Source: Bdellovibrionota bacterium | Lineage (GTDB): Bacteria; Bdellovibrionota_C; UBA2361; JBIKUX01 | Assembly (NCBI GenBank): GCA_044347345.1 | Contig: JBIKUX010000023.1 | Coordinates: 1-42,787 of the forward strand | Reading direction: 5' to 3' | DNA: 42,787 bases | Part shown: piece by piece, positions 1 to 22,216 of the stretch | Numbering within the stretch: the stretch's first letter is position 1 | How the letters are laid out: each line of letters starts with the position of its first letter | Position numbers and translations under genes: made by a program | The notes under the pieces: generated by a model | What the model was told of the DNA's origin: nothing | Databases searched by the model: none | The model's input: only the letters and a program-made list of their open reading frames with translations

Positions 1-44
1 CACTTTTTATTGTATTTCAGATTACAATAGTTAAACACCTGTTT

Positions 45-121
45 GGTGGGCGTAGCTCAATAGGTAGAGCACCGGATTGTGGTTCCGGTGGTTGTGGGTT
101 CAAGCCCCATCGCTCACCCCA
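45..121 (+). tRNA. tRNA-His (anticodon GTG) with G-1 and encoded CCA
   Basis: Acceptor stem GTGGGCG (46-52) pairs with CGCTCAC (111-117). The extra G45:C118 pair is typical of tRNA-His. Anticodon arm CCGGA-TTGTGGT-TCCGG, T-arm GGTTCAAGCC, CCA at 119-121. Confidence 0.97.
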
Positions 122-130
122 TTTATACCC

Positions 131-344
131 GCATCAGATGCACTGGATGCAGGTTTGTGATTTGACCTTCAGAACTCTCTGAAAAACCCCTTACTCTCTT
201 AATATTATTAGTGTTCCAGGGTGTCGGTGTTGCATCTTTCATTTTTGAGAAGTGCCTCGACATTTCAGGAAATGTCAGACTTTGGATGCAAAAAGGATGC
301 ATTTGCATCCTGGGGTATTTTGAAAAGTGGGTGCACAGGGTGCA
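131..344. promoter_or_regulatory. Left-end (attL-like) cluster of putative integrase arm-type sites, GG(A/G)TGCA
   Basis: GGATGCA at 145-151, 284-290 and 295-301; inverted TGCATCC at 304-310; GGGTGCA at 329-335 and 338-344; ATTTCAGGA at 262-270. The same motifs recur at the right-end cassettes. Confidence 0.65.
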
Positions 345-349
345 CTTTG

Positions 350-898
350 TTATTCTTTGAGTTTCCCACCCATATTTTGCGGCAACTTCTCTCTGAGAAG
401 GTCGAACTCTTCAGCAGTCAGCATGAGTTCTATATCTAACCCCTCTTTACGGGTGCTCTCCGCTTCTAAGAGCTTCGCTTTTAGGTTGCTTCTGATTTCG
501 GTCACCTTAGGGTTATCTACCTTCGGCGGTGTATTCTGATTTGTGTAGAGCTGCCACAGCTCAGCGATAGCGAGCTTAGGGTTATCACGAAATGAAGCGG
601 GTATACCTTTCCAGTATGCTTCATCGTCAGGGAACACTGCTACAAAGTCTTTAAGCACCGACCTGATGCGATTTCGATCAAGGTGTGGTTTCTCGGGGTC
701 TCTAGCGATCTCAAAGAAGAAGAACTGAACCAACTTATCTATAACGCTGGCAGAGGGGATCACCTTAGGGTTGCTCTGTATTCTCGACAAAACGTTCCTA
801 TCGCAGCCACTGCGCTCTGAAAGCTCTTTTAGGGTGATTTTTCGACCCTCCTTGGCCTCCAGTTTCTCTAATAGTTTCGCTAGGTTAAACCTGATCAT
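350..898 (-). CDS. XRE/Cro-like helix-turn-helix repressor with a C-terminal extension
   Basis: N-terminal ITLKELSERSGCDRNVLSRI HTH pattern; divergent from xis-int, as in phage and satellite switches. Confidence 0.75.
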   Translation of the reverse strand: MIRFNLAKLLEKLEAKEGRKITLKELSERSGCDRNVLSRIQSNPKVIPSASVIDKLVQFFFFEIARDPEKPHLDRNRIRSVLKDFVAVFPDDEAYWKGIPASFRDNPKLAIAELWQLYTNQNTPPKVDNPKVTEIRSNLKAKLLEAESTRKEGLDIELMLTAEEFDLLREKLPQNMGGKLKE

Positions 899-926
899 AA
901 AACAACAAAACGATGTAAGAAATGTC

Positions 927-956
927 TTGACACCGTGCTCTTTAATGAGTTATACT
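927..956 (+). promoter_or_regulatory. sigma70-type promoter for xis-int
   Basis: TTGACA (927-932), 18-bp spacer, TATACT (951-956). Confidence 0.6.
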
Positions 957-968
957 TATAATATGAGT

Positions 969-990
969 TGGGCAGTAAGCTTACTTCCCA
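969..990. promoter_or_regulatory. Palindromic operator candidate between repressor and xis
   Basis: TGGGcAGTAAGCTTACTtCCCA: perfect 12-bp core at 974-985 plus flanking TGGG/CCCA, just downstream of the promoter. Confidence 0.45.
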
Positions 991-1064
991 CTCTTAATAT
1001 GATTATAGCGCATTTCGGATGCCTAAGTCAAATACTTAAATGTTTTAAATGGGGTTGCTTGTAT

Positions 1065-1256
1065 ATGAACACCAACGAAGTAATAGGTTCTGAACTACTC
1101 ACCGCTGAAGATGCAGCAGACATGCTCTCAATGAGCGTTAACGCATTTCGCATCTTCGTTCACCGCTACGGTAGCAAGATCAAAAAAGTAAAACTCGGTA
1201 AGCGAAAGACCTTCTACTACAGGTCAAGCATTCTTGCGCTCCTGCAAGAATGCTAA
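1065..1256 (+). CDS. Excisionase / AlpA-MerR-like HTH protein
   Basis: From ATG 1065: MNTNEVIGSELLTAEDAADMLSMSVNAFRIFVHR...KVKLGKRKTFYYRSSI, a winged-HTH xis pattern directly upstream of the integrase. Confidence 0.75.
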   Translation: MNTNEVIGSELLTAEDAADMLSMSVNAFRIFVHRYGSKIKKVKLGKRKTFYYRSSILALLQEC

Positions 1257-1300
1257 CTCGCATCAGGTTTTTAGTTGTTTGTTTTTTTGAAGTTGTATTT

Positions 1301-2374
1301 ATGAGCATTAAAGTGATCACGAACGGTAAGAAAGTTAGATATGACGTGCAGGTATCAGCAAGACACCCGATTACAAGGAAACGTGAGTTTCTTCGCCGTC
1401 GTGCAGATAATAAATGGGCTGCACAGCAGTTAGAAAAAGAGCTTTACCAAGAGTTGAAAGCAAAACAGTCAGGTATTCAACTGCCTAGTTGGTTGCATCT
1501 TGTTGCAGCGTATGAAGCGCAGTGTCTCATCAATAAAGCAGCATCAACCAAGCACAACGAGCTTTCGATTCTTAGTCATCATGCAACCCCTCTGCTTCAT
1601 TCAAAACTTGTAAATCAGATCACAGAAGTAGACATCAGAGAAATACTGAATCGCATTGACCCTGAAAGATCATTGAGTCTGAAACATAACGTACGAAAAT
1701 GCATCGCAAATGTCTTTAACTATGCGCTTGAGTGTAGATACATCACTGATAACCCATGCAGAAGAATCAAGCTTGCAAAAATACCTGAGCCATCGCTCAA
1801 CATTCTCACCGATGAACAGATCAAAACCTTTTTAAAGAAAGCAGAAGAGACGGGTATGGAATGGTTTCCAATCTGGGCGATTGCAATCTACACGGGCCTT
1901 AGAAGTGGAGAGCTAATCTCTCTTCGTTATCGCCATATTGACCACAATCAAAGTAAGCCAGTTATCAAGGTTCAAGAGAGCTGGACAAAGCAAGGCGGAT
2001 ACAAACCTTTCACTAAGAATAAGCAGGTGCGCACAGTTCCAATGAACAAGGAAGTTCAGCGCATCATTGAAAAGCTAAGAGCAGACAACCCAAACAACTG
2101 TAAACCCGAAGATTTTATCTTACCGCAAATACCTACCTGGAAGCAGGGAGACGCAGCGAAAGACCTTAAAGCGTTTCTTCAGGGGTGTGGTTTGCCTGTG
2201 ATTAGATTTCATGACCTTCGTGCTTGCTTTATCAGTCAGTTGTTACTGGGTGGTGTCCAACCTTCAGTAGTAATGAAGATGGTGGGCCACGGCGACATGA
2301 AAACATTGATGCGTTATTGCAGGCACACTGGTTCAGATGTGCTGGGTCAGACTGATGTCTTGGATTTTTCTTAA
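1301..2374 (+). CDS. int: Tyrosine recombinase / integrase (alternative start 1250)
   Basis: Catalytic motifs YTGLRSGEL (R), TKNK (K), FHDLR (HxxR), MVGHGD (H), TLMRY (Y), with an N-terminal arm-binding-like region. Confidence 0.95.
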   Translation: MSIKVITNGKKVRYDVQVSARHPITRKREFLRRRADNKWAAQQLEKELYQELKAKQSGIQLPSWLHLVAAYEAQCLINKAASTKHNELSILSHHATPLLHSKLVNQITEVDIREILNRIDPERSLSLKHNVRKCIANVFNYALECRYITDNPCRRIKLAKIPEPSLNILTDEQIKTFLKKAEETGMEWFPIWAIAIYTGLRSGELISLRYRHIDHNQSKPVIKVQESWTKQGGYKPFTKNKQVRTVPMNKEVQRIIEKLRADNPNNCKPEDFILPQIPTWKQGDAAKDLKAFLQGCGLPVIRFHDLRACFISQLLLGGVQPSVVMKMVGHGDMKTLMRYCRHTGSDVLGQTDVLDFS

Positions 2375-2388
2375 ACTATTTAATAACA

Positions 2389-2742
2389 ATGGAGAATGCA
2401 GTGGATTACCCAGATTACCTACACTTGAAGAAGAAATACAGAAGGCTGAGAAAGGTACTTAAAGAATCTGAAGCCCAAGCACTTCAGCGAGGCAAGTCCA
2501 CGGAGATCGAGAAAGTTTTGCTCGACATAGTACAAGCTGCGCAGGTTCTTTACGTGAAAGGTCTCATCAAAGACACTCCAGAGGTGATCGTTTTCAAATA
2601 TTTGGTGGATTGGTGGTTCGACGATACGGTGAGTGAGTTTCTCGATGGTCAAACCCCTGAATGGTATCAGTTAACGAAAATCAATAGATCCAGTCTCATG
2701 GAGGCGCGGCAGGCACCAAAGGGCCACATCGACATGCGTTGA
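2389..2742 (+). CDS. Hypothetical protein, 117 aa, basic helical N-terminus
   Basis: ATG ORF starting 14 bp after the integrase stop, co-oriented. No family recognised. Confidence 0.6.
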   Translation: MENAVDYPDYLHLKKKYRRLRKVLKESEAQALQRGKSTEIEKVLLDIVQAAQVLYVKGLIKDTPEVIVFKYLVDWWFDDTVSEFLDGQTPEWYQLTKINRSSLMEARQAPKGHIDMR

Positions 2743-2766
2743 TAGAACTTGCAGGTATAGAGAATA

Positions 2767-2774
2767 TATAAATA
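2767..2774 (+). promoter_or_regulatory. TATAAATA box (T4-type late promoter consensus) upstream of the structured region
   Basis: Exact octamer in intergenic DNA immediately 5' of the hairpin-dense region. No convincing -35 seen. Confidence 0.45.
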
Positions 2775-2779
2775 GAAAG

Positions 2780-3330
2780 TAGTTAATAGCGCATTTCCGT
2801 TGTTTAACGAGATGTGGTGAAAATAACGACCTTGTCGGTGCGAGAAGTGCTGTCTTGGTATTCAGTTGGCAACTAATACCATTCTGGGCGAAAGCAAAGT
2901 AAGAGACTGTCGTAAGAGCCAGGGCTGCAAAGTTGGAAACGCAGCCTATAACGCTGTAATGCGTGTGGAGACTAACTCTCAATCAACCTGTTCAACACGA
3001 AGTAGGAGCCAACCTACCAAGTGCCACGGTCAATCTCTTTGCTGTGGATTTACACTTGCCGCTGGTGCTGAATAAGCATGTATGGCGTCGTAAAAGTGAG
3101 ACAGGCTTAACCGCCACTTCCCTCGCAAGAGGTTGCGCTTTAGAGATTGTGATGAAGGGACCCGTACGCAAACCCTGACACAATACACCCCATAGTAGGG
3201 TGTATTGTATCTCCCCGACGCAAACTGGAACTTATAAGACCTAAAAACAGGAACATGCACTTCGTAAGAAGTGCAATAGAACCGAACGAAGTGAGGTTCT
3301 ATGATTCAAGGGCTTCTAGGCCTTGTATGC
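2780..3330 (+). ncRNA. Putative large structured non-coding RNA (~550 nt); boundaries approximate
   Basis: More than 12 back-to-back stems, e.g. TGGTATT/AATACCA (2856-2881), GGCTGC/GCAGCC (2923-2946), CAAGTG-CCACGGT/GCTGTGG-CACTTG (3018-3058), CCTC-GCAA-GAGG (3121-3132), an 11-bp stem at 3180-3208, TGCACTTC-GTAA-GAAGTGCA (3256-3275). GNRA loops on the + strand. Loop 3031-3038 is complementary to 3142-3149. Confidence 0.65.
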
Positions 3331-3436
3331 AACCTCAACTTGCTCCACATCGGCTGATCATTTCCAGAGCCTATTAGGACTTATTCCAAGCCAGAAACTA
3401 AAGTCTTCAAATACCCGCCACTGAGTTGCTCCTCCT

Positions 3437-3444
3437 TATAAATA
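3437..3444 (+). promoter_or_regulatory. Second TATAAATA box upstream of the small-ORF operon
   Basis: Exact octamer 38 bp before ATG 3483, with an AAGGA RBS in between. Confidence 0.45.
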
Positions 3445-3482
3445 CACAAGAGATACATGTACCCCTTTAAGGAAAACGACTG

Positions 3483-3722
3483 ATGAGTAAGCCAAGATCA
3501 AAGACTGCACAGATCAGATTATTATTACCTGAAGATTGGATACCTGAACTTGATAACCTGGCAGCCTCAAGGTTCCTAACGCGCCTTGGACTGATCAGAT
3601 ATTATCTTCGTTTCAAGATGAATGAGGAACTGACAACTCTTGCAGAGCACTTCAAGCAAACTGAGCAAAACAGACTTACTCATCAGCGCCTTTCTCGTAA
3701 GATTGATGATTATCGGAGATAG
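3483..3722 (+). CDS. Ribbon-helix-helix (CopG/Arc-like) DNA-binding protein
   Basis: TAQIRLLLPEDWIPELDNLAASRFLTRLGLIRYYL fits the strand-helix-helix pattern; RBS present. Confidence 0.65.
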   Translation: MSKPRSKTAQIRLLLPEDWIPELDNLAASRFLTRLGLIRYYLRFKMNEELTTLAEHFKQTEQNRLTHQRLSRKIDDYRR

Positions 3723-3725
3723 ACC

Positions 3726-3923
3726 ATGGCAAAAGTTATTTCCAAAGCTGAAGCGATAAAAATCATTAATCAACTTGAGCCACTTGAGATCTTACATGAA
3801 GCACTTGATCGTAATGAAACCATGCCAGTCAAGCAGACCAAGTTAACAAGGTTCATCAACTTGATTCAAAAACAGATCAAGGATGAGCGCGACATTTTTT
3901 GGATTGCCATTAAAGTAAAGTAG
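3726..3923 (+). CDS. Small hypothetical protein, 65 aa
   Basis: Tightly packed between co-oriented ORFs (3-4 bp gaps). Confidence 0.6.
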   Translation: MAKVISKAEAIKIINQLEPLEILHEALDRNETMPVKQTKLTRFINLIQKQIKDERDIFWIAIKVK

Positions 3924-3927
3924 TAAG

Positions 3928-4296
3928 ATGAAATCTTTCCGTCAGATTATTCAAGGTCAAGCCGAAGCAAAGCGTTCCAATAAGACCATAAAAGAAAGTC
4001 TCATCGGGAAAGGTTTTTCCGCGGTTCAGAATCGTCAGCACCAGACACTTAGAACGCAAGCACTTTCCAAGCTTTCAGCTATACAGAGCGATTGCCGTTT
4101 GGCGATTCAAGAAGATGATGAGCGTAAGCGCGAGGAACATCTATTTCATTTAATCTTTGATCTCGCTGCCACGCTGAAGCTCTTCGCTGAGATGTCAACC
4201 TGCACCAATAATATCAGCGCCATGGCAGTGTTTGATCAGGAAAGTCTAAAGAGAGAACTTGCTCCTGTAATCAAGTCCATTACACAGAAGCGTTAA
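3928..4296 (+). CDS. Hypothetical helical protein, 122 aa; N-terminus MKSFRQII resembles T4-like capsid-targeting leaders
   Basis: Third gene of the small operon. The leader resemblance was judged by eye only. Confidence 0.6.
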   Translation: MKSFRQIIQGQAEAKRSNKTIKESLIGKGFSAVQNRQHQTLRTQALSKLSAIQSDCRLAIQEDDERKREEHLFHLIFDLAATLKLFAEMSTCTNNISAMAVFDQESLKRELAPVIKSITQKR

Positions 4297-4436
4297 AATC
4301 ACCTCACTTGGCTTTAGCCCGCCCAAATAGTCCATAACTCATCAAATCCATTGACCATTCCAGGTCTTAGTGGTTTACTACTACCGTTTCGTTTCTATTA
4401 AGACCTATTAGACAAACTGTGAAGGTAAGAAGGCAA

Positions 4437-4643
4437 ATGGAAGTACATGATGCAGCCGAGCAGTGGGTGTCTGTTGAGCAGATTGCTCAACACTTAAATG
4501 TGAAGGCGTTCACTATTTACAAATGGCTCGAACGTAAAGACATGCCTGCTCACAAGGTCGGAAGACTTTGGAGATTTAAGATTACTGAGATCGATGAGTG
4601 GGTGCGCCGCGGTGATGCTGGTGAAGAGAAGCCCAAGAAATAG
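4437..4643 (+). CDS. Excisionase-family (HTH_17) DNA-binding protein upstream of hsdM
   Basis: WVSVEQIAQHLNVKAFTIYKWLE...MPAHKVGRLWRFKITEIDEWV, the characteristic family pattern often found before type I R-M operons. Confidence 0.88.
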   Translation: MEVHDAAEQWVSVEQIAQHLNVKAFTIYKWLERKDMPAHKVGRLWRFKITEIDEWVRRGDAGEEKPKK

Positions 4644-4667
4644 TTTTAAAGTTGTGATGGAGCAAGC

Positions 4668-6152
4668 GTGATTACAGGTGAGTTAAAATCAAAGGTAGAT
4701 AAGGTCTGGGATGCTTTCTGGTCTGGTGGTATTTCAAACGGTCTTACCGTTATCGAGCAGATAACCTACCTTCTGTTTGTCCGTCGCCTTGATGAGCTTC
4801 ATACCGCAAGAGAGAAGAAAGCAAATCTTTTAAAGAAGCCGATAGAGGAACCAATCTTCCTAGATAACGATCAGGAGCAAAGACTTCGCTGGTCTAGATT
4901 TAAAGATTTAGGTTCACCTGAAAAGATGTATGAGCTTTTCAGAGATAAAGTTTTTCCATTCATAAAAGAAACCCTTCCGAATCGCCAATCAAGCGGCAAT
5001 GAAAGTGCATATGCAAAGTTCATGAAGGATGCGGTCTTTGTAATACCCACACCATCACTGTTTGCCCGTGTCGTTGACATGCTGAACGATATTCCGATGG
5101 AAGATAGAGATACCAAAGGCGATCTCTATGAATATCTTCTTTCAAAGATCGCATCTGCTGGAACAAACGGTCAGTTTAGAACTCCAAGACACATCATCAA
5201 AATGATGGTCGATTTAATGCAGCCAAAACCAGATGACATTGTGAACGACCCAGCTTGTGGAACCTGTGGTTTCTTAGTTGAGACTGGCGAGTATCTGCGG
5301 CGTGTTCATCCTGAAATATTTCACGATGAGAAGAAGAAAAATCACTTTAACAACAAACTCTTTTGTGGAACTGACTTTGACGCCTCTATGCTTCGTATTG
5401 GTGCCATGAATATGGTGCTGCATGGTGTTGAGAACCCACACATAGATCGTATAGATGCACTATCAGAATCAGGCAAAGGTAATCGTAATGCTTACACCTT
5501 AATCTTAGCTAATCCTCCATTCACTGGTTCATTAAACTATGACGAAGTATCCAGTGATCTGTTAGCTCTCAGTAAAACCAAAAAAACAGAGCTTCTTTTC
5601 CTTTCGCTTTTCTTGCAGCAGTTAAAGCCAGGTGGAAGATGCGCCTGCATTGTGCCTGATGGTGTTTTGTTTGGTTCTTCAAAGGCTCACGTTCAGATCA
5701 GAGAGTCATTAGTTGAAGGACACAAGCTTGAGGGAATCATCTCAATGCCGTCAGGTGTCTTTAAGCCTTATGCAGGCGTTTCAACCGCGATCATGATCTT
5801 TACTAAGACCAACTCAGGTGGAACTGATCATGTTTGGTTCTATGACATGGAAGCTGATGGTTTCAGCTTAGACGATAAGCGTGAACCTAAGCTTGAGAAT
5901 GATATTCCAGACATTCTTGAGAAGTGGGCGAAGAGAAATCCTAAGAAAGATACAGAGAGGAATGGTAAGGCGTTCTTTGTTCCGAAGAGTGAGATTGTTG
6001 AGAATAAATACGATCTCTCAATAAATCGGTACAAAGCGGTTGATCATCTTGAATCTTCGCATGATTCACCCACGATAATCCTTGATGAGCTTGAAAAACT
6101 TGAATCAGAGATTCGGCTTGAAATCTCCGCATTAAGGGAGTTGTGTCTGTGA
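4668..6152 (+). CDS. hsdM: Type I R-M methyltransferase subunit
   Basis: GQFRTPRHI, motif I DPACGTCGFL, motif IV NPPF. Confidence 0.97.
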   Translation: MITGELKSKVDKVWDAFWSGGISNGLTVIEQITYLLFVRRLDELHTAREKKANLLKKPIEEPIFLDNDQEQRLRWSRFKDLGSPEKMYELFRDKVFPFIKETLPNRQSSGNESAYAKFMKDAVFVIPTPSLFARVVDMLNDIPMEDRDTKGDLYEYLLSKIASAGTNGQFRTPRHIIKMMVDLMQPKPDDIVNDPACGTCGFLVETGEYLRRVHPEIFHDEKKKNHFNNKLFCGTDFDASMLRIGAMNMVLHGVENPHIDRIDALSESGKGNRNAYTLILANPPFTGSLNYDEVSSDLLALSKTKKTELLFLSLFLQQLKPGGRCACIVPDGVLFGSSKAHVQIRESLVEGHKLEGIISMPSGVFKPYAGVSTAIMIFTKTNSGGTDHVWFYDMEADGFSLDDKREPKLENDIPDILEKWAKRNPKKDTERNGKAFFVPKSEIVENKYDLSINRYKAVDHLESSHDSPTIILDELEKLESEIRLEISALRELCL

Positions 6153-7366
6153 ACGGAGAAAAGTATAGCTGGCAATGGGTGCGTAGCGGCGATGTCCTCG
6201 ATATTAGAGATGGCACACATGATACGCCTAAAAAAGCTGACCAGGGCTTCCCATTAATAACCTCCAAGAACTTATCAAAAGGGTTTATTGACTTTGCTGA
6301 GTCATATTTCATCAGCGCCCTAGATCATCAAGCAATCAAGAAGCGATCAGGTGTCTCAAGGGGGGATATTCTAATGCCCATGATTGGGACAATCGGAAAC
6401 CCTGTAATAGTGGACACGGAAGTTGAGTTCTCCATCAAGAATGTAGCTTTGTTTCGCAAAGAGGCTAGCCCATACGATGAAAGGTTTTTGTTTCATCTTC
6501 TCAAATCGCCGATAGTTGTACGGCAGCTTGACAAGGAGCAACGTGGTGGAACACAGAAGTTCGTTTCTCTTGGGAAGTTAAGAAATCTCGATCTACCGCT
6601 CCCTCCTCTCCCCGAACAAAAACGCATAGCAGTAGTCCTTGACAAAGCAAATGGCATTCGCCGAAAGCGTGAGAAAGCGATTGAGCTTACCGATTCATTT
6701 TTGAGGTCGATGTTTTTGGAGATGTTTGGGGATCCTGTTTCCAATCCAAAAAAATGGGACGTGATGAAAGTCGGAGAAGTTTGCGATTCGATTGTGCCAG
6801 GTCGGGATAAGCCGAAGAGCTTTACGGGAACTATGCCATGGGTTTTAAGCGATGATCTTAACCATGGTGATTTCACTTCTGTGTCGAAACAGCAGTTGGG
6901 ACTTACGGATGCAGAGATTACCGAAGTTCGAGCGCGAGTGATCCCCAAAGGCAGTGTCTTAATGACATGTGTTGGGAGACTAGGTGTTGTAAGTATTGCA
7001 GGCTGTGACTTGGTGATAAATCAGCAACTCCACAGTTTTCAATGTAAGCCAAAGATCAATAACCTTTTCCTTTGCGCGCTTCTTCCCTGGAGGAAGAAAT
7101 ACATGGAACAGCATGCCTCTGCGACAACGGTTCCTTACATGAACAAAACAACCTGCAACTCCATTCCTATAATAGTTCCACCCGTAGAACTTCAAAATCA
7201 GTTCGCCCGAGTGGCTTCGTCACACCTAACACTTAAAGCCAAACTGGGAAGTTCATTGCAAATGGCAGAGGCTCTATCAGCATCGCTATCCAAGAATCTA
7301 TTTGATGGAGTCACCGCAAGGGTTTCGCGTATTGCTCCATTAGAGGAGGCAGCACATGCTCTCTAA
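6143..7366 (+). CDS. hsdS: Type I R-M specificity subunit
   Basis: Two variable TRDs with conserved PLPPLPEQKRI, FLEMFGDP and VPPVELQNQF spacers; overlaps hsdM and hsdR. Confidence 0.95.
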   Translation: MSVNGEKYSWQWVRSGDVLDIRDGTHDTPKKADQGFPLITSKNLSKGFIDFAESYFISALDHQAIKKRSGVSRGDILMPMIGTIGNPVIVDTEVEFSIKNVALFRKEASPYDERFLFHLLKSPIVVRQLDKEQRGGTQKFVSLGKLRNLDLPLPPLPEQKRIAVVLDKANGIRRKREKAIELTDSFLRSMFLEMFGDPVSNPKKWDVMKVGEVCDSIVPGRDKPKSFTGTMPWVLSDDLNHGDFTSVSKQQLGLTDAEITEVRARVIPKGSVLMTCVGRLGVVSIAGCDLVINQQLHSFQCKPKINNLFLCALLPWRKKYMEQHASATTVPYMNKTTCNSIPIIVPPVELQNQFARVASSHLTLKAKLGSSLQMAEALSASLSKNLFDGVTARVSRIAPLEEAAHAL

Positions 7367-10300
7367 CTTCGACTTCATCCCACTTCAATGGTCAAAGCTA
7401 AAAGAAGATGCCTCCCACGCTGAGCAGTTTGCATTAACTCAGCCCCGCACTGCTGCCTTCTATGCAAGAAGAGCATTAGAAAAGATCGTTAACTGGCTTT
7501 ACGATTACGATAAAACCTTAAAGCGCCCATATCAGGATAATCTTGCAGCCCTTATTCACGAACCAACTTTTCAAAAACTAGTTTCACCTTCTGGTCTGTT
7601 TCAATATATCAGACTGATTCAAAAGATCGGCAATCAGGCTGCCCATAGCGATGTCCAGATCAGACAGTACGATGGAATCGAGATAGTAAAATCACTGCAT
7701 GGCGTACTCACTTGGGCGGTAAGACTCTATACCAAGGTTCAAGATTCTCCGACATTTAATAGCTCTCTGGTTCCATCGGTTGATGCCTCCACCGTTCTGA
7801 AAGAATCAAGAAGAACGATTGACGAGCTTCAAACTCGGCTTCAGTCAGAAGATGATCGCTATGAGCGAGAGCGTAAAGAACGACAAAAGAACGAAGAGGA
7901 AATAACCCGTCTTCAAAAAGAGATTGAAGAACTTAAAGCCCGAAATATTCAGAGGGTGAAAGAGATCCCCGAGATCATCACTGAGGCTGATACGCGCAAG
8001 TGGATTATCGATGTCATGCTCCGTGAAGCAGGTTGGGACAAGTTCGTTAATGCTAGAGATGTTGAATACCCTGTAAAAGGAATGCCGAACCCTAAGGGTG
8101 AGGGCTTTGTTGATTATGTGCTTTGGGGTGATGACGGTCTGCCACTTGGCATCGTTGAAGCAAAGAGAACAAGCAAAGACCCGATTGAGGGACAAAGACA
8201 AGCAGAGCTTTACGCAGATTGCCTCGAAAAAGAAACAGGTCAACGACCTATCATCTACTACACCAACGGTTATGAGATTTGGCTATGGGATGACAGGGTT
8301 TATCCGCCTAGACCAGTTCAGGGGTATGCAACAAAAGATGAACTACAACTACTGATTAATAGAAGAAAGATCAAAGGTTCGTTAAGAGATATTGAGCCAA
8401 ACAGAGACATAATAAACCGCCCGTATCAGATCGAAGCTGCTGCACGAGTAGTTGAACGTCTGGAGAACGAAAGACAAAGACGATCTCTCCTCGTAATGGC
8501 TACGGGTACGGGCAAAACCAGAATGAGCATCGCTGTTGTAGAGATGCTGATGCGCCAGAACTGGATTAAGAGAGTTTTATTCCTTGCAGATAGAACTGCG
8601 CTAGTTAAGCAGGCTAAAAAACGTTTTGCAGAACACCTGCCGAATGTTGGCGCTATCAATATCGTTAGCGAAACCGAGGAAGAAAATACTCGCTTGGTGT
8701 TCTCTACGTATCACTCGATGATGAATCTTATTGATGAATCAAAGAATGACGGCAAGAAGCGATTTGGTACGAACTTCTTTGATCTGATCATCATTGATGA
8801 AGCTCATCGATCTGTTTATCACAAGTTCAAAGCAATATTTGAATACTTCGATAGTTTGCTGATTGGTCTTACAGCAACTCCACGGTCTGAAGTGGGTAAG
8901 GACACCTACGGTCTTTTTAACTGTGAAAATAATGTTCCAACTCACTGGTACGAACTAGATCAGGCGATTGCAGATAAATATCTGGTGGAACCTAAGCCCA
9001 TTACGGTGCCAACAAAGTTCCATCGTGAAGGAATCAAGTACGATGAACTCACCCCTGACGAGCAGGAAGAGTATGAAGAGACTTTCTTTGATGATGAGAC
9101 TGGCACGATGCCAAAAGAGATTGAGCCTGCGGCATTAAATAGCTGGCTATTCAACAAAGACACCGTTGATAAGGTTCTCGCCCATCTAATGCAAAACGGC
9201 ATCAAGATCGAAGGTGGCGACAAGCTCGGAAAATCAATCATCTTTGCCAAGAATCACAATCACGCGATCTTTATTGAAGAGAGGTTTAACGTAAACTATC
9301 CGCACCTTGCAGGTAAGTTTCTTCGCGTCATTGATAATCAGGTCAAATATGCAGACACACTGATCGATGAGTTTGATGTAGCCACCAAAGACCCATTGAT
9401 TGCTGTCTCTGTTGATATGCTTGATACAGGTATCGACATTGAAGAGATAGTGAACCTTGTATTCTTCAAACGAGTCAAATCACGCACCAAGTTCTGGCAG
9501 ATGATTGGTCGTGGCACTCGTCTCTGTGAAGATCTCTTTGGTCCTGGGCAGGACAAGAAATGCTTCTATATCTTTGACTACTGTGAAAACTTTGAGTTCT
9601 TTGGCAAGAACCCGAAAGGCATAGAAGCTCAACCGCAAGAATCGATCAAAGAGAAGATATTTAAGCGAAGATTGCAGGTTGCAAGAATGCTTGATGCTGA
9701 TGCTAATAAATCAGTGGAGCTTTCAACTTTACATAAAGAGATACTTGATCAGCTCCACAATCAAGTCGCTACCGTCAACATTGAAAGCTTTGTAGTTAGA
9801 CCTCATCGCCGTTATGTAGAGCGATATATTGAACGAGATACCTGGGACAACTTAAAGCCGAATGACTATCACGATATTTCAAAGCATTTAAGCGGACTTC
9901 CTACACCTGATAGTGATGATGAGTTTGCAAGACGATTTGATCTACTTTGCTTAAACCTTGCTGTTTCATTCATTGAAGTAAGCAAGCGGCAAGAAGGCTA
10001 TAAAGAAAGCGTTGTTGATTTGGCGCGTTCACTTGAGAAGAAGAAAAACATTCCAGCAGTTGCAGCCAAGCTAGACTTTATCAGAACTATTCAGACTGAT
10101 GACTATTGGGAACACCTTAGCGTTCCTGCGATTGAGAAGCTACGAAAGGAGCTAAGAGAGCTTATCAAGTTTATTGATGCTGAAGGTGGATTAAGTCGGG
10201 TTTACACCAACTTTGAAGATGAGTTTGGTGAAGCTGTTGAAGTGCGAGAGTTTATCCCTGGCTATGGTGACCGTGAAAACTACCGACTCAAGGTGGAACG

Positions 10301-10739
10301 ATTTGTAAGAGAGCATCAAGACCACATCACCATTCGAAGGTTGATGCACAATAAGCCGATAACTTCTGGCGACATTCAGGGCTTTGAAGAGATCTTTTTC
10401 TCAGAGCAAGGCATCGGCGATAGAGATCAGTTTGAGAAGAACTTTGGTAAGCAGTCTCTAGGTCGATTCATTCGCTCAATAGTTGGTCTTGATCGAGATG
10501 CAGCCAAAGAAGCCTTCGGTGAGTTTCTTTCAGGCAAGAAGCTAGAAGCAGACCAGATCACCTTTATCAATCAGATCGTTGAACACCTTGTTAAGAATGG
10601 GGTGATGAACCCTGAGAGGCTGTTTGAACAACCATTTACAGATATTCACTCTGAAGGTTTGGCAGGTGTATTCCCCAATGATGCAGAACGTATTCTTGCG
10701 GTGATTGAGGATGTGAATAGGAGGGCTGAAGCAGCGTGA
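7356..10739 (+). CDS. hsdR: Type I R-M restriction subunit (EcoAI/EcoEI-like)
   Basis: VDY...IVEAKR nuclease motif, MATGTGKT Walker A, DEAHRS, QMIGRGTR. Confidence 0.96.
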   Translation: MLSNFDFIPLQWSKLKEDASHAEQFALTQPRTAAFYARRALEKIVNWLYDYDKTLKRPYQDNLAALIHEPTFQKLVSPSGLFQYIRLIQKIGNQAAHSDVQIRQYDGIEIVKSLHGVLTWAVRLYTKVQDSPTFNSSLVPSVDASTVLKESRRTIDELQTRLQSEDDRYERERKERQKNEEEITRLQKEIEELKARNIQRVKEIPEIITEADTRKWIIDVMLREAGWDKFVNARDVEYPVKGMPNPKGEGFVDYVLWGDDGLPLGIVEAKRTSKDPIEGQRQAELYADCLEKETGQRPIIYYTNGYEIWLWDDRVYPPRPVQGYATKDELQLLINRRKIKGSLRDIEPNRDIINRPYQIEAAARVVERLENERQRRSLLVMATGTGKTRMSIAVVEMLMRQNWIKRVLFLADRTALVKQAKKRFAEHLPNVGAINIVSETEEENTRLVFSTYHSMMNLIDESKNDGKKRFGTNFFDLIIIDEAHRSVYHKFKAIFEYFDSLLIGLTATPRSEVGKDTYGLFNCENNVPTHWYELDQAIADKYLVEPKPITVPTKFHREGIKYDELTPDEQEEYEETFFDDETGTMPKEIEPAALNSWLFNKDTVDKVLAHLMQNGIKIEGGDKLGKSIIFAKNHNHAIFIEERFNVNYPHLAGKFLRVIDNQVKYADTLIDEFDVATKDPLIAVSVDMLDTGIDIEEIVNLVFFKRVKSRTKFWQMIGRGTRLCEDLFGPGQDKKCFYIFDYCENFEFFGKNPKGIEAQPQESIKEKIFKRRLQVARMLDADANKSVELSTLHKEILDQLHNQVATVNIESFVVRPHRRYVERYIERDTWDNLKPNDYHDISKHLSGLPTPDSDDEFARRFDLLCLNLAVSFIEVSKRQEGYKESVVDLARSLEKKKNIPAVAAKLDFIRTIQTDDYWEHLSVPAIEKLRKELRELIKFIDAEGGLSRVYTNFEDEFGEAVEVREFIPGYGDRENYRLKVERFVREHQDHITIRRLMHNKPITSGDIQGFEEIFFSEQGIGDRDQFEKNFGKQSLGRFIRSIVGLDRDAAKEAFGEFLSGKKLEADQITFINQIVEHLVKNGVMNPERLFEQPFTDIHSEGLAGVFPNDAERILAVIEDVNRRAEAA

Positions 10740-11443
10740 TAGATGCACCCTCAACACACTGGATCGATCTAGTTGGTATAATCGAACTTGGGTTGGCACC
10801 AAACTCCACCGATGAGGAAAGGAAAGCTGACAAACAGTTTCCCCTGATCAGTTTAGAAGAAAAGTATCGTCAACATAAAAACTACGGCAGAATCATGGCT
10901 GCCTTAGTTGATCTAAAGCTTACATTTCATTTCTTTGCGAATGACTTTTCTTATGCTGGTGGAGTTTTCAACGAACAGCTCCATGAAAAAGTCTTGGCTG
11001 GAAGAACAGAAGCGCAGATCGTAGCCTCCAAGATTTTGTTTCTTCGATACCTCAATGCGTTTGTCCTTCGCTGTCGATCATTTTGGGATAAGGCAATGGG
11101 GCTAATGGTTTTGGCTCTGAATCAAGACGAGTATGAGAACTTTTTAAGCAGCCACAGTCGTAGAGCTGCTTTTAAAAAGGCAATGCAAAATCACTTAGCG
11201 GAGGAATCAGTAGCAAGTATAGACACTCTGATTGGTGTATTAGACGACAAGTTCAGAACTGCTGAGGCACATCAAACTGGAACGTTGAGAACGTGGATTT
11301 TTCACAAGTGGGATCCGAACCCGATTAATACTCCATTCGGTTATCTTCTAGGCATTTATAATCACACGTTTAAATATGCTGAACAGATATCGAAGTTATT
11401 ACTAGAAAATCGAATCATCCCTTCAGCACGCGAGCATTCATAG
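10736..11443 (+). CDS. Putative HEPN-like (Cthe_2314-type) ribonuclease / defence effector
   Basis: Helical-looking protein with SFWDKA and R-x4-H (RTAEAH); its start overlaps the hsdR stop (GTGA). Confidence 0.5.
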   Translation: MIDAPSTHWIDLVGIIELGLAPNSTDEERKADKQFPLISLEEKYRQHKNYGRIMAALVDLKLTFHFFANDFSYAGGVFNEQLHEKVLAGRTEAQIVASKILFLRYLNAFVLRCRSFWDKAMGLMVLALNQDEYENFLSSHSRRAAFKKAMQNHLAEESVASIDTLIGVLDDKFRTAEAHQTGTLRTWIFHKWDPNPINTPFGYLLGIYNHTFKYAEQISKLLLENRIIPSAREHS

Positions 11444-11452
11444 TGAGGCATT

Positions 11453-12343
11453 ATGGCAAAGGCAAAACTAGGCACATACTACCTCGCTAGAATCATCAAA
11501 GTGGGGTTGCTTGATGACACGAAGGTTATCGAGGCTCTCCAAAAGCCTCTACCTATTGTTCGTGGAACGCATGGTTGGACAATCACTAAGTTTCAGAAGT
11601 GTGAATGTGAAGGGCACGATTACTATTTTGCGAAACTAACTAAATATAAACCTGATGGCGAGGTCAGTGTTATTGACCATGAGAAGGGGGAAGAAGTCTC
11701 TCAAATAGAACCTGATCTAGTTGTTGCTTCGAGTCCATTTGTCTTCATCCCTAGTGAATCCGCATTCGCACATTTACATGTATGGAATCAAATAGGTGAA
11801 GATATATTCAAAGAGCGAATGGCTGAACTGATTATGGCAAAGCACCAACACTTTTTTGTCGATTGCTCACTCGAATCAATCGCAGATCTAAGAACGTTCC
11901 TGGTCAAGATTAAAGAACTTGAGCAAATCACCCACATCGCAGCCACCATTTTCCCGCCAAACCCGCTATTCAGTCCTGCATGGGAATCCTTGAAAGATTA
12001 CTTAAAGACACGAAAAACCGAGGAAATGAAAGTTGAAGAAAAGTCATCGCAGGCAATCAATACTGACCTTCCTGCAATAGTCTCTGAGGTTCTTGATTCA
12101 ACACTTTCTGAATCTACAACCAGGAATGCGCAGATCGGTGATGCTGCAATCTTGATGGCTGCTGATGGTTACGGAAGGGGTAAGATAGTTGGAACCAGGA
12201 CAGGACATCAAGTAACTGTTCGCACTTCGGAAGCAACCTTAAACTTTCAACTGGAAAAGGATCCGAATGCTGAACTTCTGTTCAAAAAGACCTTTGAGAT
12301 TTTACAAGATATGAATAAACGTAGAAATCTGAAGCACAAATGA
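11453..12343 (+). CDS. Hypothetical soluble protein, DUF4747-like; candidate defence protein
   Basis: 296 aa with FAKLTKY, SPFVF and IFPPNP segments. Family resemblance is from memory only. Confidence 0.5.
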   Translation: MAKAKLGTYYLARIIKVGLLDDTKVIEALQKPLPIVRGTHGWTITKFQKCECEGHDYYFAKLTKYKPDGEVSVIDHEKGEEVSQIEPDLVVASSPFVFIPSESAFAHLHVWNQIGEDIFKERMAELIMAKHQHFFVDCSLESIADLRTFLVKIKELEQITHIAATIFPPNPLFSPAWESLKDYLKTRKTEEMKVEEKSSQAINTDLPAIVSEVLDSTLSESTTRNAQIGDAAILMAADGYGRGKIVGTRTGHQVTVRTSEATLNFQLEKDPNAELLFKKTFEILQDMNKRRNLKHK

Positions 12344-12804
12344 AACAACTAACTGATGCTCTACGTTTCGTTGTCATTTCGCCTGAACTGTTGGTAATAG
12401 CTTCCCTATTGCTCATTGGCCACACCTATCCTGACTTAGCAACGGTAGTAGGCGACAAGCTGATTGCTAATACTGAGATTACATCGGTTCTTTTAGGGTT
12501 TCCGATTGCACTTTTTTTATGGACATATCCAGAAGCTAAGAGCATTTTATTTCCGAAAGACAATAACAAGGTCCTTATCGAATGGAATGATTATCCTCTT
12601 TTAAGAAACAGAGTCTATTACAGTCTCTTTCTGCAAATAGTATGTGTAGTGGCCTCTGCGATCTTGTTTCTCTTTAAGAGCGATATCGAATCTAGAATCT
12701 TTGCGGTAGGTCTAGTAATGATTCTAGGTGTGTTACTTTGTATCGCAATATCTCTTGCAATGGCTTCAATGCAGATTCGACAAATCATTGAAAAAGAAAT
12801 CTGA
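12340..12804 (+). CDS. Four-TM membrane protein coupled to the upstream gene
   Basis: Four hydrophobic stretches; ATGA overlap with the previous stop. Confidence 0.75.
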   Translation: MKQLTDALRFVVISPELLVIASLLLIGHTYPDLATVVGDKLIANTEITSVLLGFPIALFLWTYPEAKSILFPKDNNKVLIEWNDYPLLRNRVYYSLFLQIVCVVASAILFLFKSDIESRIFAVGLVMILGVLLCIAISLAMASMQIRQIIEKEI

Positions 12805-12833
12805 TGATTAGACTGTCGATTCAAGAAATGAGT

Positions 12834-12941
12834 ATTTCAGGACATTTCTAGGCTGGTCAAAAGTTGGATGCAAAAAGGCTGCAACGAAAATAAAGATCAA
12901 ATAATACCGATATATTAGACCCCTACAGATACTACACCCCA
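12834..12941 (+). repeat. attR-like right-end cassette, copy 1
   Basis: ATTTCAGGA (12834), GGATGCA-AAAA-GGCTGCA (12866-12883), AGATACTA-CACCCCA (ends 12941). Confidence 0.75.
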
Positions 12942-12976
12942 ACTTCGCTCGTTCGCTTCGCTCACGAGCTTCGTCG

Positions 12977-13253
12977 GGGCAAGCCCGATCATTACTCGAT
13001 GCAGTTGGAATCGCCAATAGCGAAGTTGGCTCCGACGAAGTCAGCTTTAGCTGACGAAGTCGAGCGGGCAAGCCCGACCATTACTCGATGCAGTTGGAAT
13101 CGCCAATAGCGAAGTTGGCTCCGACGAAGTCAGCTTTAGCTGACGAAGTCGAGCGGGCAAGCCCGATCATTACTCGATGCAGTTGGAATCGCCAATAGCG
13201 AAGTTGGCTCCGACGAAGTCAGCTTTAGCTGACGAAGTCGAGCGGGCAAGCCC
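12977..13253. repeat. Tandem repeat, 3 x 89 bp, with REP-like hairpins
   Basis: AAGCCC anchors at 12981, 13070, 13159 and 13248. Units are identical except T/C at 13078. Each contains CGAC-GAA-GTCAGC-TTTA-GCTGAC-GAA-GTCG and GGGC-AA-GCCC. Confidence 0.95.
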
Positions 13254-13315
13254 AAAAATCTTAATTCAATAGGCAACTTTCTCCGCAATTCTCCGATTAA
13301 TAGGTCGGAGGTCCC

Positions 13316-13555
13316 ATGCACATCGTCTATCTACTACGCAGCCAAAAAAATCCTAATAGAGTCTACGTCGGCTTATGCAGCAACATGAAAAACCGTCTCG
13401 CCGAACACAATGCAGGCGAATGCAAGACGACGACTGAAAATCGTCCTTGGGAGGTCGACATCGCCGTCTATTTTCGAGATGAAAAGAAAGCACATGCCTT
13501 TGAGCGATATCTCAAGACAGGTTCAGGTCGAGCATTCTCAAAGCGACATCTTTAG
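13316..13555 (+). CDS. Small stand-alone GIY-YIG nuclease (UPF0213/YhbQ-like)
   Basis: IVYLLRS...VYVG...RLAEHNAG...RPW...AHAFERYLKTGSGR; GGAGG RBS. Confidence 0.92.
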   Translation: MHIVYLLRSQKNPNRVYVGLCSNMKNRLAEHNAGECKTTTENRPWEVDIAVYFRDEKKAHAFERYLKTGSGRAFSKRHL

Positions 13556-13616
13556 TCTCAAGTAAAATGATGAGGTAATGACATTTTTGGGGGAAACCGC
13601 ATATGCTTGGCATCGT

Positions 13617-14785
13617 ATGCGAAAGTTGATCTTTACTTATTTTCTTCTTTGCCTGTTCTCGATTGACGGATTTTGTGACACGCCGCCAGCATTCCAAGAT
13701 CTAAAGAAGAAATTTTCCACTATTAATCAGCTTCGCTTTAGGTACTCCGAACATCACACGCCCACTTGAGTTGGTGTCGGATCCCCACCAGTACCTATGG
13801 TGCGGGATTTCAAAGCCAGTGTATCAGCCACTAAAACTGAAATATTTATAAAATATAGTAGCACCGCAACCGGACGTAACTGGGAAAATTCTGGGACTTT
13901 CATCTCGGATGGAAAGTATGAATGGAACTATCAAAAGCAAGGCGGGGAAATAATACGTCCTTTGTTTCAAAGCGACCGGTCGGATTTCAGGATGAGCTGT
14001 TAAAAAAAGTGGCTGCGTCTGCCCCCCAATTTAATAAACAGAAACCGAATTGCCTACCTTTTGAACAGCTCTTCGACCCTGAGCTTGGCTCTGTCTGGTC
14101 GCCCTTTAAGTTCTATGAAGATCTCAGATTGAGAAAGATAACATTTGAAGGGACCGATATCGCCAATGCAGAAGGTCTTCATCACTGAACTGTGCAGCCC
14201 GAGGAGGGTTGTAGAAGAATTGAGCTTTGGATTGATGATGTCGATGGAATGCCCACGAAGTTTGTCGCCTATAATCCATATAAAGGAGCCGAGGATCGAG
14301 TTGAGCACGTTGGCGTGTTTTCCGAAAAAGAAAAAAACATCTCATTTTCGTCGGATCTTTTCACTTTCGACCCGAAGAAATTTCCTGACGCACAGGTTTT
14401 AGAGATGGACGCCAACAAAAGCGCCGAGATGTTTGTTAATACGTTTGCGACGCCTGCGAAATTGGTTTTTGAATCCCTGTTCAAACCCGATGCTTCTTCG
14501 GTCAAGGAGCTAGAAGGAACCGGATCGGGTTGGTTTACCTACTCATATCACCTACGTTTCATATCAAATACTTTGCCGCCCTTGAAGAAACAGCTGGAAT
14601 TTACGTCGGGGGAGCCCAGCAAGGCTGTTGAGTTTTTTAAGGAATCTTTCCCGAAGGACACAAGGTTGCTTAGTGAAATTTCGCTACTTGAGCTGAAAGA
14701 GAATCATCAGGGCAAAAATCATTTCTGGGTTTTGCATAACCGAAAAAACAATGTGTTTTTCGTGCGTGCTTGGGGTGATGAATAA
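13617..14785 (+). pseudogene. Fragmented exported protein with a LolA-like region
   Basis: Signal-peptide-like start MRKLIFTYFLLCLFS, then four consecutive fragments broken by stops and frameshifts (ends 13769, 14003, 14188, 14785). SSDLFTFDPKKFPDAQVLE resembles the LolA-fold C-terminal motif. Confidence 0.5.
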
Positions 14786-14807
14786 TAAGATTTCCTCCTT
14801 TCAAGAA

Positions 14808-14915
14808 ATTTCAGGAGCTTTCAAAATTACACCAAAATTGGGTGCAAAAAGGATGCACGATTTCATAAAACCCAATAAAATCAAGGGGTTTAGAGGTGCC
14901 AGATACTCCACCCCA
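14808..14915 (+). repeat. attR-like right-end cassette, copy 2
   Basis: ATTTCAGGA (14808), GGGTGCA-AAAA-GGATGCA (14840-14857), AGATACTC-CACCCCA (ends 14915); same 32- and 69-bp offsets as copy 1. Confidence 0.75.
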
Positions 14916-15030
14916 GTATTGTCCCTTTGGGGAGTGTTTCGTTCACTTTGTTTTGTTCACTGCACGCAGCTTGGGGTTCGCCGTGGCGCTTAAAGCTATC
15001 GTGGCGCTTAAAGCTATCGCTCACCCCATT
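14916..15030 (+). repeat. ~115-bp segment homologous to 17317-17408, ending in a 15-bp copy of the tRNA-His 3' end
   Basis: ATCGCTCACCCCATT at 15016-15030 equals 109-123. Internal 18-bp tandem duplication CGTGGCGCTTAAAGCTAT at 14982-15017. Confidence 0.75.
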
Positions 15031-15074
15031 CATCCGATTTCACTCCCAACCATGCCTGCGGGTTTTCGGGCATA

Positions 15075-18340: not shown

Positions 18341-19117
18341 CGCAAGTTGCGATAAAGCAGCTTGGAACAAACGGGGGCTTATACTTTAACGTTAATTTAG
18401 CTCACCCACTAGAGAATCCGACACCGTTGTCCAATTTAATTAAGCTCATCTCTATTCTTCTTATTTCTGGAGCGTAGCGTGTTGCTTTGCTTGCGGACGA
18501 CTCGTAAAGGATACGCGTCAGTCAAGGGGGGTAGCGTTATATTCTATCATGACCGCTGTGAGCCTTGTGGCAACGCTCTACACCCTCTACTTCGAGCAGT
18601 ATCCAACCCCAAAGCTATTCCCTGAGACGGTAGCGGAGTACTAGAGCCTACCTCAGAGATGCCTGGCTGTAATATGGAGGGTAAAGAAACACGGCTTGGA
18701 GAACAGACTCAAGCTTGTGGGCGGTGGCAACCACGGCGGCAAGTAACGGCTCAGTTAACCCCATGCACCACTCATACACACCATTTGGAGGACTCATTCC
18801 TCTAGCGATAATGCAACTTGGCGAAGTGATCTGTGGCGGTGTCGGCTCTAGTCTTTAGGAAGTGATCGCTTTTGTCCTCGTTACTGTCTTTATAGCGGGT
18901 ATTATGGTCGGACGTATGCTCTCGAGTATTTGGGCGAAAAAATCGACGTCTTTGACATCAAGATGGTTTCAGTAATTGTACTCATCCTGAGCGTTCTTGT
19001 GCTTGCGGGAGCCGCTCTTACTATTGCTGCATGGATAGGGAGTGCGCGTTGGTCTCCAACTCTGGCTCTTACGGCTTTACGCAAATCCTCTATGCTTACA
19101 CATTAATGGATAACAAC
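18334..19117 (+). pseudogene. kdpA: Decayed internal fragment of K+-transporting ATPase subunit A
   Basis: Manual translation across stops and frameshifts gives [93 protein letters not shown]; all are KdpA signature segments in the correct order. Confidence 0.88.
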
Positions 19118-22189: not shown

Positions 22190-22216
22190 AAACCGTGAAT
22201 CGGTTCCTGATAACGT

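Follow-up and report, generated by a model that had tools for sequence, protein, structure and literature searches.

Satellite P4 carries promoters that belong to the late class of its helper P2, and the late regulators of the helper switch P4 on. The late promoters of phage T4 have the consensus TATAAATA at −13 to −6 and no −35 element; according to two accounts (PMC1524935, PMC2988020), this consensus is perfect at 32 of about 50 T4 sites and A is found at −13 at nine of them, T at −13 is poorly conserved in the relatives of T4 (phage Aeh1 uses CTAAATA), and gp55 alone gives late-promoter specificity. PICMI elements are minimalist satellites of virulent phages in Vibrionaceae, whose concatemers are packaged by headful and whose replication is consistent with a rolling-circle mode (PMC10803314). 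The DNA analysed here is contig JBIKUX010000023.1 of a Bdellovibrionota bacterium, positions 1–42,787 (“the window” below means this whole stretch of 42,787 nucleotides, nt), and the subject is a 12.8-kb integrative element, the island, which lies in a tRNA-His gene at about positions 115–12934. Two exact copies of TATAAATA, boxes 1 and 2, precede a structured RNA and a three-gene operon of this island; they are conserved in related loci and are very probably real promoters. The features on which the argument depends are as follows (aa, amino acids; RHH, ribbon-helix-helix; pLDDT, predicted local distance difference test).

927–956, + strand: xis-int promoter, canonical sigma-70 type, TTGACA-18-TATACT, 11 of 12 positions
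2767–2774, + strand: box 1, TATAAATA, without a −35, at the 5′ edge of the structured RNA
2775–3303, + strand: core of the structured RNA (nine members), its last conserved hairpin at 3276–3302
3329–3436, + strand: conserved spacer with a hairpin region (CAACTTGCTCCACATCGG...), present in some Rep-type and other relatives too
3437–3444, + strand: box 2, TATAAATA, without a −35, 46 nt before the ATG (3483) of the 79-aa RHH-like gene
3451–3458, + strand: AGATACAT, a conserved element after box 2; AGATACA(T) stands 6–12 nt downstream of the box in most loci
3483–3722, + strand: RHH-like protein, 79 aa, with a conserved N-terminal pattern in the alignment that is compatible with RHH
3726–3923, + strand: 65-aa protein, modelled as two helices (pLDDT 86.5)
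3928–4296, + strand: 122-aa protein, a predicted long two-helix hairpin (model pLDDT 79.9)

A preliminary description, made from the window alone, had placed exact boxes at 2767–2774 and 3437–3444, equated them with the T4 late consensus without a −35, and given the xis-int operon an ordinary TTGACA/TATACT promoter. Both boxes are indeed present on the + strand, the identification of the octamer agrees with PMC1524935 and PMC2988020, and the xis-int promoter is found at 927–956. The same description cautioned that octamers of this kind are expected by chance, and that caution is sound: the window holds three copies (the third on the − strand at 13843–13850) against 1.58 expected, and at least three copies occur in 22 of 100 shuffles, which is not significant. 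Genome-wide there are 234 copies, counting both strands of 2.53 Mb, of which 72 are intergenic. The count in the window is thus not above chance, and the case therefore rests on comparison with relatives.

Related loci were collected in two sets, and the relatives are metagenome-assembled genomes labelled Bdellovibrionota or Bdellovibrionales; the genome of the window is from a freshwater bacterium. The discovery set comprises loci that encode the 79-aa protein in genomes of the same order, in one genome per species and in metagenomes (n = 18 with upstream sequence, the window included; L030, whose match lies at a contig end, was left out). The test set was drawn, after the pattern had been seen, from a profile search of a sample of the phylum (124 genomes, 18 with a match) and comprises eight more distant loci with upstream sequence (L065, at a contig start, was left out). 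An exact box 2 lies on the coding strand 39–51 nt before the RHH start codon in 13 of the 18 discovery loci, and the remaining five have the variants CCTAAATA (L023, L038), GCTAAATA (L020), GATAAATA (L024) and CATAAATA (L037). Five of the eight test loci also have the exact box (L058, L059, L061, L062, L066), with CATAAATA in L060 and AATAAATA in L063. Altogether box 2 is exact in 18 of 26 loci, many of them close relatives of one another; seven more keep TAAATA and differ only in the two bases before it (C, G or A as the first of these, and C as the second in three loci), and one has no box. The distance from box to start codon is 39–56 nt over both sets, and the sequence upstream of the boxes carries little information and is not conserved. 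Conservation of both boxes in homologous elements was the check that the preliminary description had proposed, and it is borne out, the eight more distant loci included; the observation of the boxes is thereby confirmed, and sequence comparison makes it stronger than could have been known from the window.

Downstream of box 2 the element AGATACAT is also conserved, and may serve as an operator or mark where the transcript begins. The composite pattern TATAAATA-N6-10-AGATACA occurs eight times in 91 genomes, seven of them at the box 2 position; the eighth, which falls at the beginning of infA, was set aside as a coding coincidence. No AGATACAT accompanies box 1.

Of the 18 discovery loci, 12 have a second exact box, 580–1120 nt upstream of the point where the RHH gene starts, and so do three of the eight test loci (15 of 26). 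It cannot be judged in L022 and L038, whose contigs end first, and L019 has TATATATA-type variants in its place. Chance AT-rich octamers would account for the three copies in the window, where the excess over 1.58 is not significant, but box 2 keeps its position and strand in 25 of 26 loci, and box 1 in 15 of 26, between flanks that diverge. Over about 229 kb of sequence from related loci, these two slots contain 26 exact + strand copies; only five lie elsewhere, four of which are on the − strand. Chance occurrence is refuted by these comparative data, and its probability is practically nil. In the upstream windows of host genes, on the other hand, the octamer occurs 12 times forward and 17 times in reverse (it ranks 30th of 56 octamers that are equal in composition); this test of orientation bias has no power, because TATAAT likewise shows none in the same windows (53 and 58).

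What follows box 1 differs among the relatives. An open reading frame (ORF) for a Rep-like protein of 204–258 aa starts about 47 nt after the box in L016, L020, L021, L036 and L039, and in L040–L042 the box is shortly followed by an ORF of 173–176 aa. An H-x-H motif is invariant in all eight Rep-like proteins that were aligned, and the main group has a tyrosine in DYLLK. Five of nine of these proteins match Pfam PF23343 (REP_ORF2-G2P) with E values of 3.5e-5 to 2.2e-4, all of them under the 27.8-bit cut-off, and none matches NCBIfam or PHROGs. The ORFs in this slot are probably small HUH rolling-circle initiators, to judge from these motifs. In the window itself, and in L018, L035 and L037 as well as L058, L061 and L066, box 1 instead opens a non-coding stretch. 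The preliminary description had found no recognisable replicase on the element. This stands for the window, since neither it nor its genome has a Rep of this HUH family; the island family is not replicase-free, because in about half of the relatives a small HUH Rep-like gene directly follows box 1. From its position, box 1 looks like the mark of a replication-initiator slot. The non-coding stretch was considered as a decayed Rep gene, but a tblastn search with the upstream proteins of the relatives gave no match there; it was also considered as a single-strand origin, a reading that was dropped as the structure and the Rep gene are alternatives and not partners.

The spacer at 3329–3436 may be an origin or a leader; it is 86% identical to that of L003 (genome G015, at the position of L016), where a Rep gene takes the place of the RNA. 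Its hairpin region at 3340–3365 begins CAACTTG(A/C)TCCACATCGG (also written CAACTTG...CCACATCGG), and L017, L018, L019, L023 and L038 have the same beginning. We take CAACTTGAT to be the start of the phiX174 gene A origin sequence and thus a candidate site for nicking by the Rep-like proteins. L017 and L023 have, ahead of box 2 and after the Rep-like gene, a gene for a protein of 144–161 aa with a weak acetyltransferase-like PHROG match; L038 shares their spacer and box spelling on a contig too short to show this gene. L062 (G057:C52) has an in-frame TAA in its RHH gene and has lost box 1 while box 2 is intact, so that the RHH gene and box 1 look to be decaying together. In the window, a 22-nt stretch at 2786–2807, within the first 30 nt after box 1, is 82% identical to 1005–1026 in the repressor/xis control region, with a 12-nt exact core ATAGCGCATTTC; it could be an operator, but about eight such pairs are expected by chance in 16 kb (an estimate).

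The boxes differ in class from the promoter of the lysogeny genes. A scan for TTGACA at 16–19 nt spacing, in two registers and against random positions in the same loci, gave a best match of 2–4 of 6 for 31 boxes, the same as background, which bears out the earlier remark that they have no −35; TG at −15/−14 is present in none. Among 33 boxes there is no drift towards TATAAT, and A occupies both candidate −7 positions in every one of them. Sigma-70 reads A at −11 and T at −7 most strictly, and no register of TATAAATA offers both. By contrast, the xis-int promoter of all eight relatives with xis matches TTGACA/TATAAT at 10–11 of 12 positions and has T at the end of its −10 hexamer. The islands thus use two promoter classes, since the lysogeny and excision promoters are ordinary and the initiator slot and small-gene operon have the −35-less octamer, and these comparisons suggest that the boxes are probably read by something other than plain sigma-70.

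Phage T4 supplies the closest match. Its late genes are read with gp55 as sigma factor, gp33 as co-activator and gp45 as sliding clamp, the latter two enhancing recognition. The T4 late promoters and the boxes share the octamer TATAAATA, the lack of a −35 and the lack of any conserved upstream sequence, and box 2 varies, as in T4-like phages, at the first two positions only, CTAAATA of Aeh1 included; the octamer is also reportedly discussed for ViI-like, rV5-like and jumbo phages. They differ in that the boxes lie on a chromosomal integrative island of Bdellovibrionota rather than on a phage, and in that box 2 has the extra conserved AGATACAT. The gp55 family was searched for as phrog_234, chosen from T4 gp55, and is absent from 90 of 91 genomes of the host order; the single match, at 26.6 bits, is weak and falls within a frame of 564 aa. 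Any factor of gp55 type would therefore need an outside source. As for the host's own promoters, the one promoter motif mapped in B. bacteriovorus (PMC3627812) is of FliA type (TTAAG-N16-CCGATA) and unrelated to the boxes, and a Bdellovibrionota chromatin preprint holds no promoter motif information.

In the explanation that we favor, both boxes would be promoters of a special class that serve the non-lysogeny half of the island. Box 1 would drive the slot that holds an HUH Rep-like gene in many relatives and the structured RNA of about 550 nt here, box 2 would drive the RHH-like/65-aa/122-aa operon ahead of the restriction-modification cargo, and the lysogeny module (repressor, xis and int) would be transcribed from ordinary sigma-70 promoters. 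The box-driven module would be silent until a virulent phage infects and supplies a late sigma factor of the gp55 family, upon which the host RNA polymerase would read the boxes and start transcription about 6 nt downstream of them. The positions of the boxes, their conservation, the missing −35 and the contrast with xis-int are shown directly; that the boxes act as promoters, where transcription starts and which sigma factor reads them is what we infer. A phage-supplied late sigma seems the most likely single mechanism, because the gp55 family is the only known reader with this specificity; as the best specific candidate it is put forward tentatively, its probability falling somewhat short of even. 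The interpretation offered in the preliminary description, in which the element expresses these units only when a T4-like phage supplies its late sigma factor, is on this evidence partly supported and plausible, sharply testable, and unproven.

Several observations weigh against a phage late sigma. The 26 loci overstate their independence, many being closely related (L040 and L041, which are equivalent, the pairs L021/L039, L022/L036 and L023/L038, and the group L058/L061/L062/L066), and the number of independent lineages is nearer a dozen. L064 has no box 2 and reads TATATACA at that place, and the operon loci L017, L023 and L024 have no distal box within one mismatch. The octamer is AT-rich and, at 234 copies, common in this genome. 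AGATACAT is foreign to T4 late promoters and points to an additional, element-specific reader, for example the RHH-like protein. No T4-like phage of Bdellovibrionota is known to us; a literature search yielded only a paper on dwarf myoviruses. Searches of IMG/VR with the RHH and 65-aa profiles found no relative, and cultured phages gave no DNA match to 2767–4296 and no tblastn match to a Rep-like protein. RNA runs were looked up for 2600–4400 and none was listed. Two IMG/VR matches of the hairpin pattern of the RNA were discarded as coding chance matches. The genome that carries the window has no CRISPR array and so offers no pointer to a phage by that route.

A further difficulty is that TATAAA matches the sigma-70 −10 hexamer in five of six positions, so that the host may read the boxes weakly. 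The boxes would then be −10-only sigma-70 promoters, weak or dependent on supercoiling, autoregulated by the RHH-like protein at AGATACAT and perhaps controlled by the island repressor, with no phage factor. RHH proteins commonly autoregulate, the conserved AGATACAT lies within +1 to +12 of box 2 and could serve as an operator, and many such octamers are present in the host genome. Yet none of the 33 boxes moves towards TATAAT, their candidate −7 positions are A throughout, no −35 or TGn compensates, box 1 lacks AGATACAT, and the same elements keep a full −35/−10 with T at −7 for xis-int in eight of eight loci; we regard this explanation as doubtful, if a serious one. Somewhat different is the proposal that the boxes are read by a specificity factor from a source other than a T4-like phage, either an uncharacterized alternative sigma of the host or a factor encoded by the island or by some other helper, in which case the 65-aa or 122-aa protein could act in positive feedback. 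We know of no factor besides the gp55 family with this octamer specificity, nothing is conserved upstream of the boxes where an activator could bind, and the octamer has no orientation bias in the host (12 against 17, in a test of low power). On the other side, the operon proteins have no match to a known family or fold, and the 122-aa protein is modelled as a helical hairpin with a conserved acidic turn, a shape that occurs in some polymerase-binding factors. About a third of the mapped attack-phase promoters of B. bacteriovorus, moreover, have no assigned motif (PMC3627812). Such a factor appears unlikely on balance.

The boxes might also not be promoters at all, and instead be HUH cleavage or recombination sites that flank an exchangeable cassette (Rep gene, RNA or another gene). 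HUH nick sites are often short AT-rich words, and the segment between the boxes is just the part that differs among the relatives. This reading is weakened because the homology breakpoint between the window and the Rep-type G015 (L016) lies at 3329 rather than at box 2; in addition, several loci have box 2 alone, the window and its genome are without a Rep of this family, and the spacing of 39–56 nt to start codons is that of promoters, so we consider it very unlikely. Returning to the phage-supplied late sigma, its fullest form would involve virulent T4-type myoviruses that encode gp55 and infect freshwater Bdellovibrionota, with the island family as their satellite or as a defense element triggered by their infection: the late sigma would fire the Rep or RNA initiator together with the operon of small helical proteins, and the island, amplified or as a concatemer, could be packaged by the headful machinery of the phage or could block the phage. 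This scenario is speculative and taken as a whole improbable. If a phage late sigma does read the boxes, a chromosomal island would be wired to the late transcription switch of T4-type phages, and this would point to T4-type phages that infect Bdellovibrionota; a narrow search of partly accessible literature found no such sensing route described for satellites or defense islands.

The comparison with P4 holds for the logic of this explanation, in that both would be parasitic integrative elements with promoters of a helper's late class. The P2 and P4 promoters require an upstream activator site together with sigma-70, whereas on the island nothing is conserved upstream and the candidate reader is a replacement sigma. 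Among known life styles that of PICMI (PMC10803314) is the nearest by analogy. Both are small and integrative with few core genes, have no capsid-remodelling genes and carry defense cargo; PICMI differ in that they lie next to fis and are activated by AlpA, and there is no sequence relation. The expression “late promoter” is absent from the text of PMC10803314. By analogy, the Rep-bearing relatives of the island could share the rolling-circle and headful route of PICMI. Plasmid pMV158, with its CopG (RHH) and RepB (HUH), resembles those relatives that have an RHH-like and an HUH Rep-like protein beside a hairpin-rich non-coding region, a likeness in which membership of both families rests on weak scores. 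It differs from them in gene order and promoters, the island is integrative, and the window has the RNA in place of Rep.

The 708 nt from 2775 to 3482 have no conserved reading frame, and the RNA takes up about 550 nt. Within 1–14500 nothing but tRNA matches Rfam 15 at E up to 1, and nothing in the whole window does so at the gathering score. A coding interpretation was rejected: the frame offset shifts every 30–100 alignment columns and each frame has 8–17 stops. The fold is better than that of shuffled sequences (z −3.2). RNAalifold on five sequences gives 90 pairs, with 87.9% of cells paired against 32–40% with slid partners, and changes on both sides at 23 pairs against 3–5 when slid, a value reached by none of 500 shuffles. 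The core can also be aligned with four members that are more distant (L058, L061, L062, L066), and its structure of 64 pairs shows 83.9% pairing against 35–40% and 24 double-change pairs against 5–9; both structures were derived from the very alignments on which these counts were made, which favors them. Several pairs are G-U on the + strand, and the structure therefore fits a + strand transcript. With such good covariation, the alignments indicate that 2775–3303 is a new structured RNA family. Like ROOL and GOLLD, the island RNA belongs to a mobile element, is non-coding, measures 500–650 nt and has many conserved helices, but it matches neither at E up to 1. ColE1 RNA II offers another parallel, as an RNA that stands where a replication initiator would be and has an origin-like region downstream. 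Since the slot behind box 1 is filled by a Rep gene in some loci and by the RNA in others, the RNA may be a protein-free replication initiator, acting as a pre-primer in the manner of RNA II, a suggestion drawn from position only.

Irrespective of which sigma reads the boxes, the analysis defines a family of tRNA-integrated islands with restriction-modification cargo, a new structured RNA, about 550 nt long, whose promoter-driven slot is held by a Rep gene in other members, and a three-gene operon without assigned function. The products of this operon have no match in PADLOC, NCBIfam or PHROGs. The 79-aa protein has no Pfam match, and a profile search against PDB gives the EndoAI antitoxin only weakly (E 0.16). 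Fold searches with the 65-aa and 122-aa proteins gave no match at E ≤ 1e-3, and the matches of the 122-aa protein were dismissed as generic helical hairpins. The family of the 122-aa protein has 84 cluster representatives at E ≤ 1e-3 among 1.84 billion proteins, and at the hairpin turn it has a conserved acidic E-[DE]-D followed by K-[RK]. The modelled hairpin with its acidic turn recalls the secondary-channel factors of RNA polymerase, a likeness of shape only.

The remaining features of the island, in a genome of 2.53 Mb that is 95.8% complete, are these (HTH, helix-turn-helix).

46–121, + strand: tRNA-His (GTG), the integration target (ARAGORN; Rfam tRNA 65.9 bits)
109–126, no strand: left junction (attL); the tRNA 3′ end forms an 18-nt repeat here, with its other copy at 15016–15033
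350–898, − strand: HTH (Cro/C1-type) repressor-like gene, 182 aa (Pfam HTH_3 23.7 bits with a cut-off of 23, HTH_19; phrog_8, phrog_6223)
1065–1256, + strand: xis-like HTH_17 protein, 63 aa (Pfam HTH_17 E 1e-4, below cut-off), beside int in seven relatives
1301–2374, + strand: tyrosine integrase (Pfam Phage_integrase 72.6 bits, Phage_int_M)
2389–2742, + strand: 117-aa ORF in a variable region, with no relative in the other loci
4437–4643, + strand: HTH_17/excisionase-family protein, MAD1-like, at the head of the cargo (Pfam HTH_17 51.5 bits)
4668–10739, + strand: complete type I restriction-modification cargo (hsdM, hsdS, hsdR), matched by Pfam
10736–12804, + strand: three ORFs (235, 296 and 154 aa) without a match in Pfam, PHROGs, NCBIfam or PADLOC
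12928–12941, no strand: right junction of the 12.8-kb element, from the empty-site contig that joins 114 to 12935

The limits of the island are given by an empty site: a contig from run X11, a lake metagenome, passes from 114 straight to 12935 and leaves out 12,820 nt, with seven ambiguous bases. Because of this contig the island is a discrete, polymorphic insertion that is missing from some cells, in line with the unit 122–12941 that the preliminary description had proposed; the int, xis and repressor that it had listed are likewise borne out by the Pfam matches to the integrase, xis-like and repressor-like genes. The contigs of four runs contain no circular or concatemer junction of the island. 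Its cargo is defensive, and no virion gene was matched in Pfam or PHROGs; nor did Pfam, PHROGs or NCBIfam give a match to any family that redirects capsids or serves packaging, such as sid, cpm, terS or ppi. The 117-aa ORF has no match in Pfam, PHROGs, NCBIfam or PADLOC. The protein at 4437–4643 matches NCBIfam MAD1 at 65 bits (cut-off 80) and TIGR01764 at 54.9 bits, and PADLOC names it mad1. The type I genes match the Pfam families N6_Mtase, HsdM_N, Methylase_S, ResIII, EcoEI_R_C and HSDR_N.

Beyond the right junction, an 89-nt unit is repeated three times in tandem at 12977–13253 (99–100% identical), and a GIY-YIG gene lies downstream of these repeats at 13316–13555. A second att-like repeat at 15016–15033 agrees with 109–126 at 17 of 18 nt, and in run X9 there is a back-join from 14828 to 12857, which suggests that 12942–15033 is a further small element, or a remnant of about 2 kb, that adjoins the 12.8-kb island. 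A 50-nt segment ending in TTGGATGCAAAAAGGNTGCA occurs at 252–301, 12834–12883 and 14808–14857 (70–74% identity), each no more than about 200 nt away from one of the copies of the tRNA 3′ end; the segments may be integrase arm sites or the traces of tandem islands at one att site. Farther to the right, G+C is 0.51–0.56 in 19000–25500 against a background of about 0.43, and Rfam finds no rRNA there. In L018 (G060:C63) the cargo downstream of the operon is not a restriction system and consists of an HTH gene, a 121-aa ORF, a fragment of 200 aa that resembles a reverse transcriptase (RVT_1) and an exonuclease like RNase_T. In its content the cargo slot is variable and defense-like.

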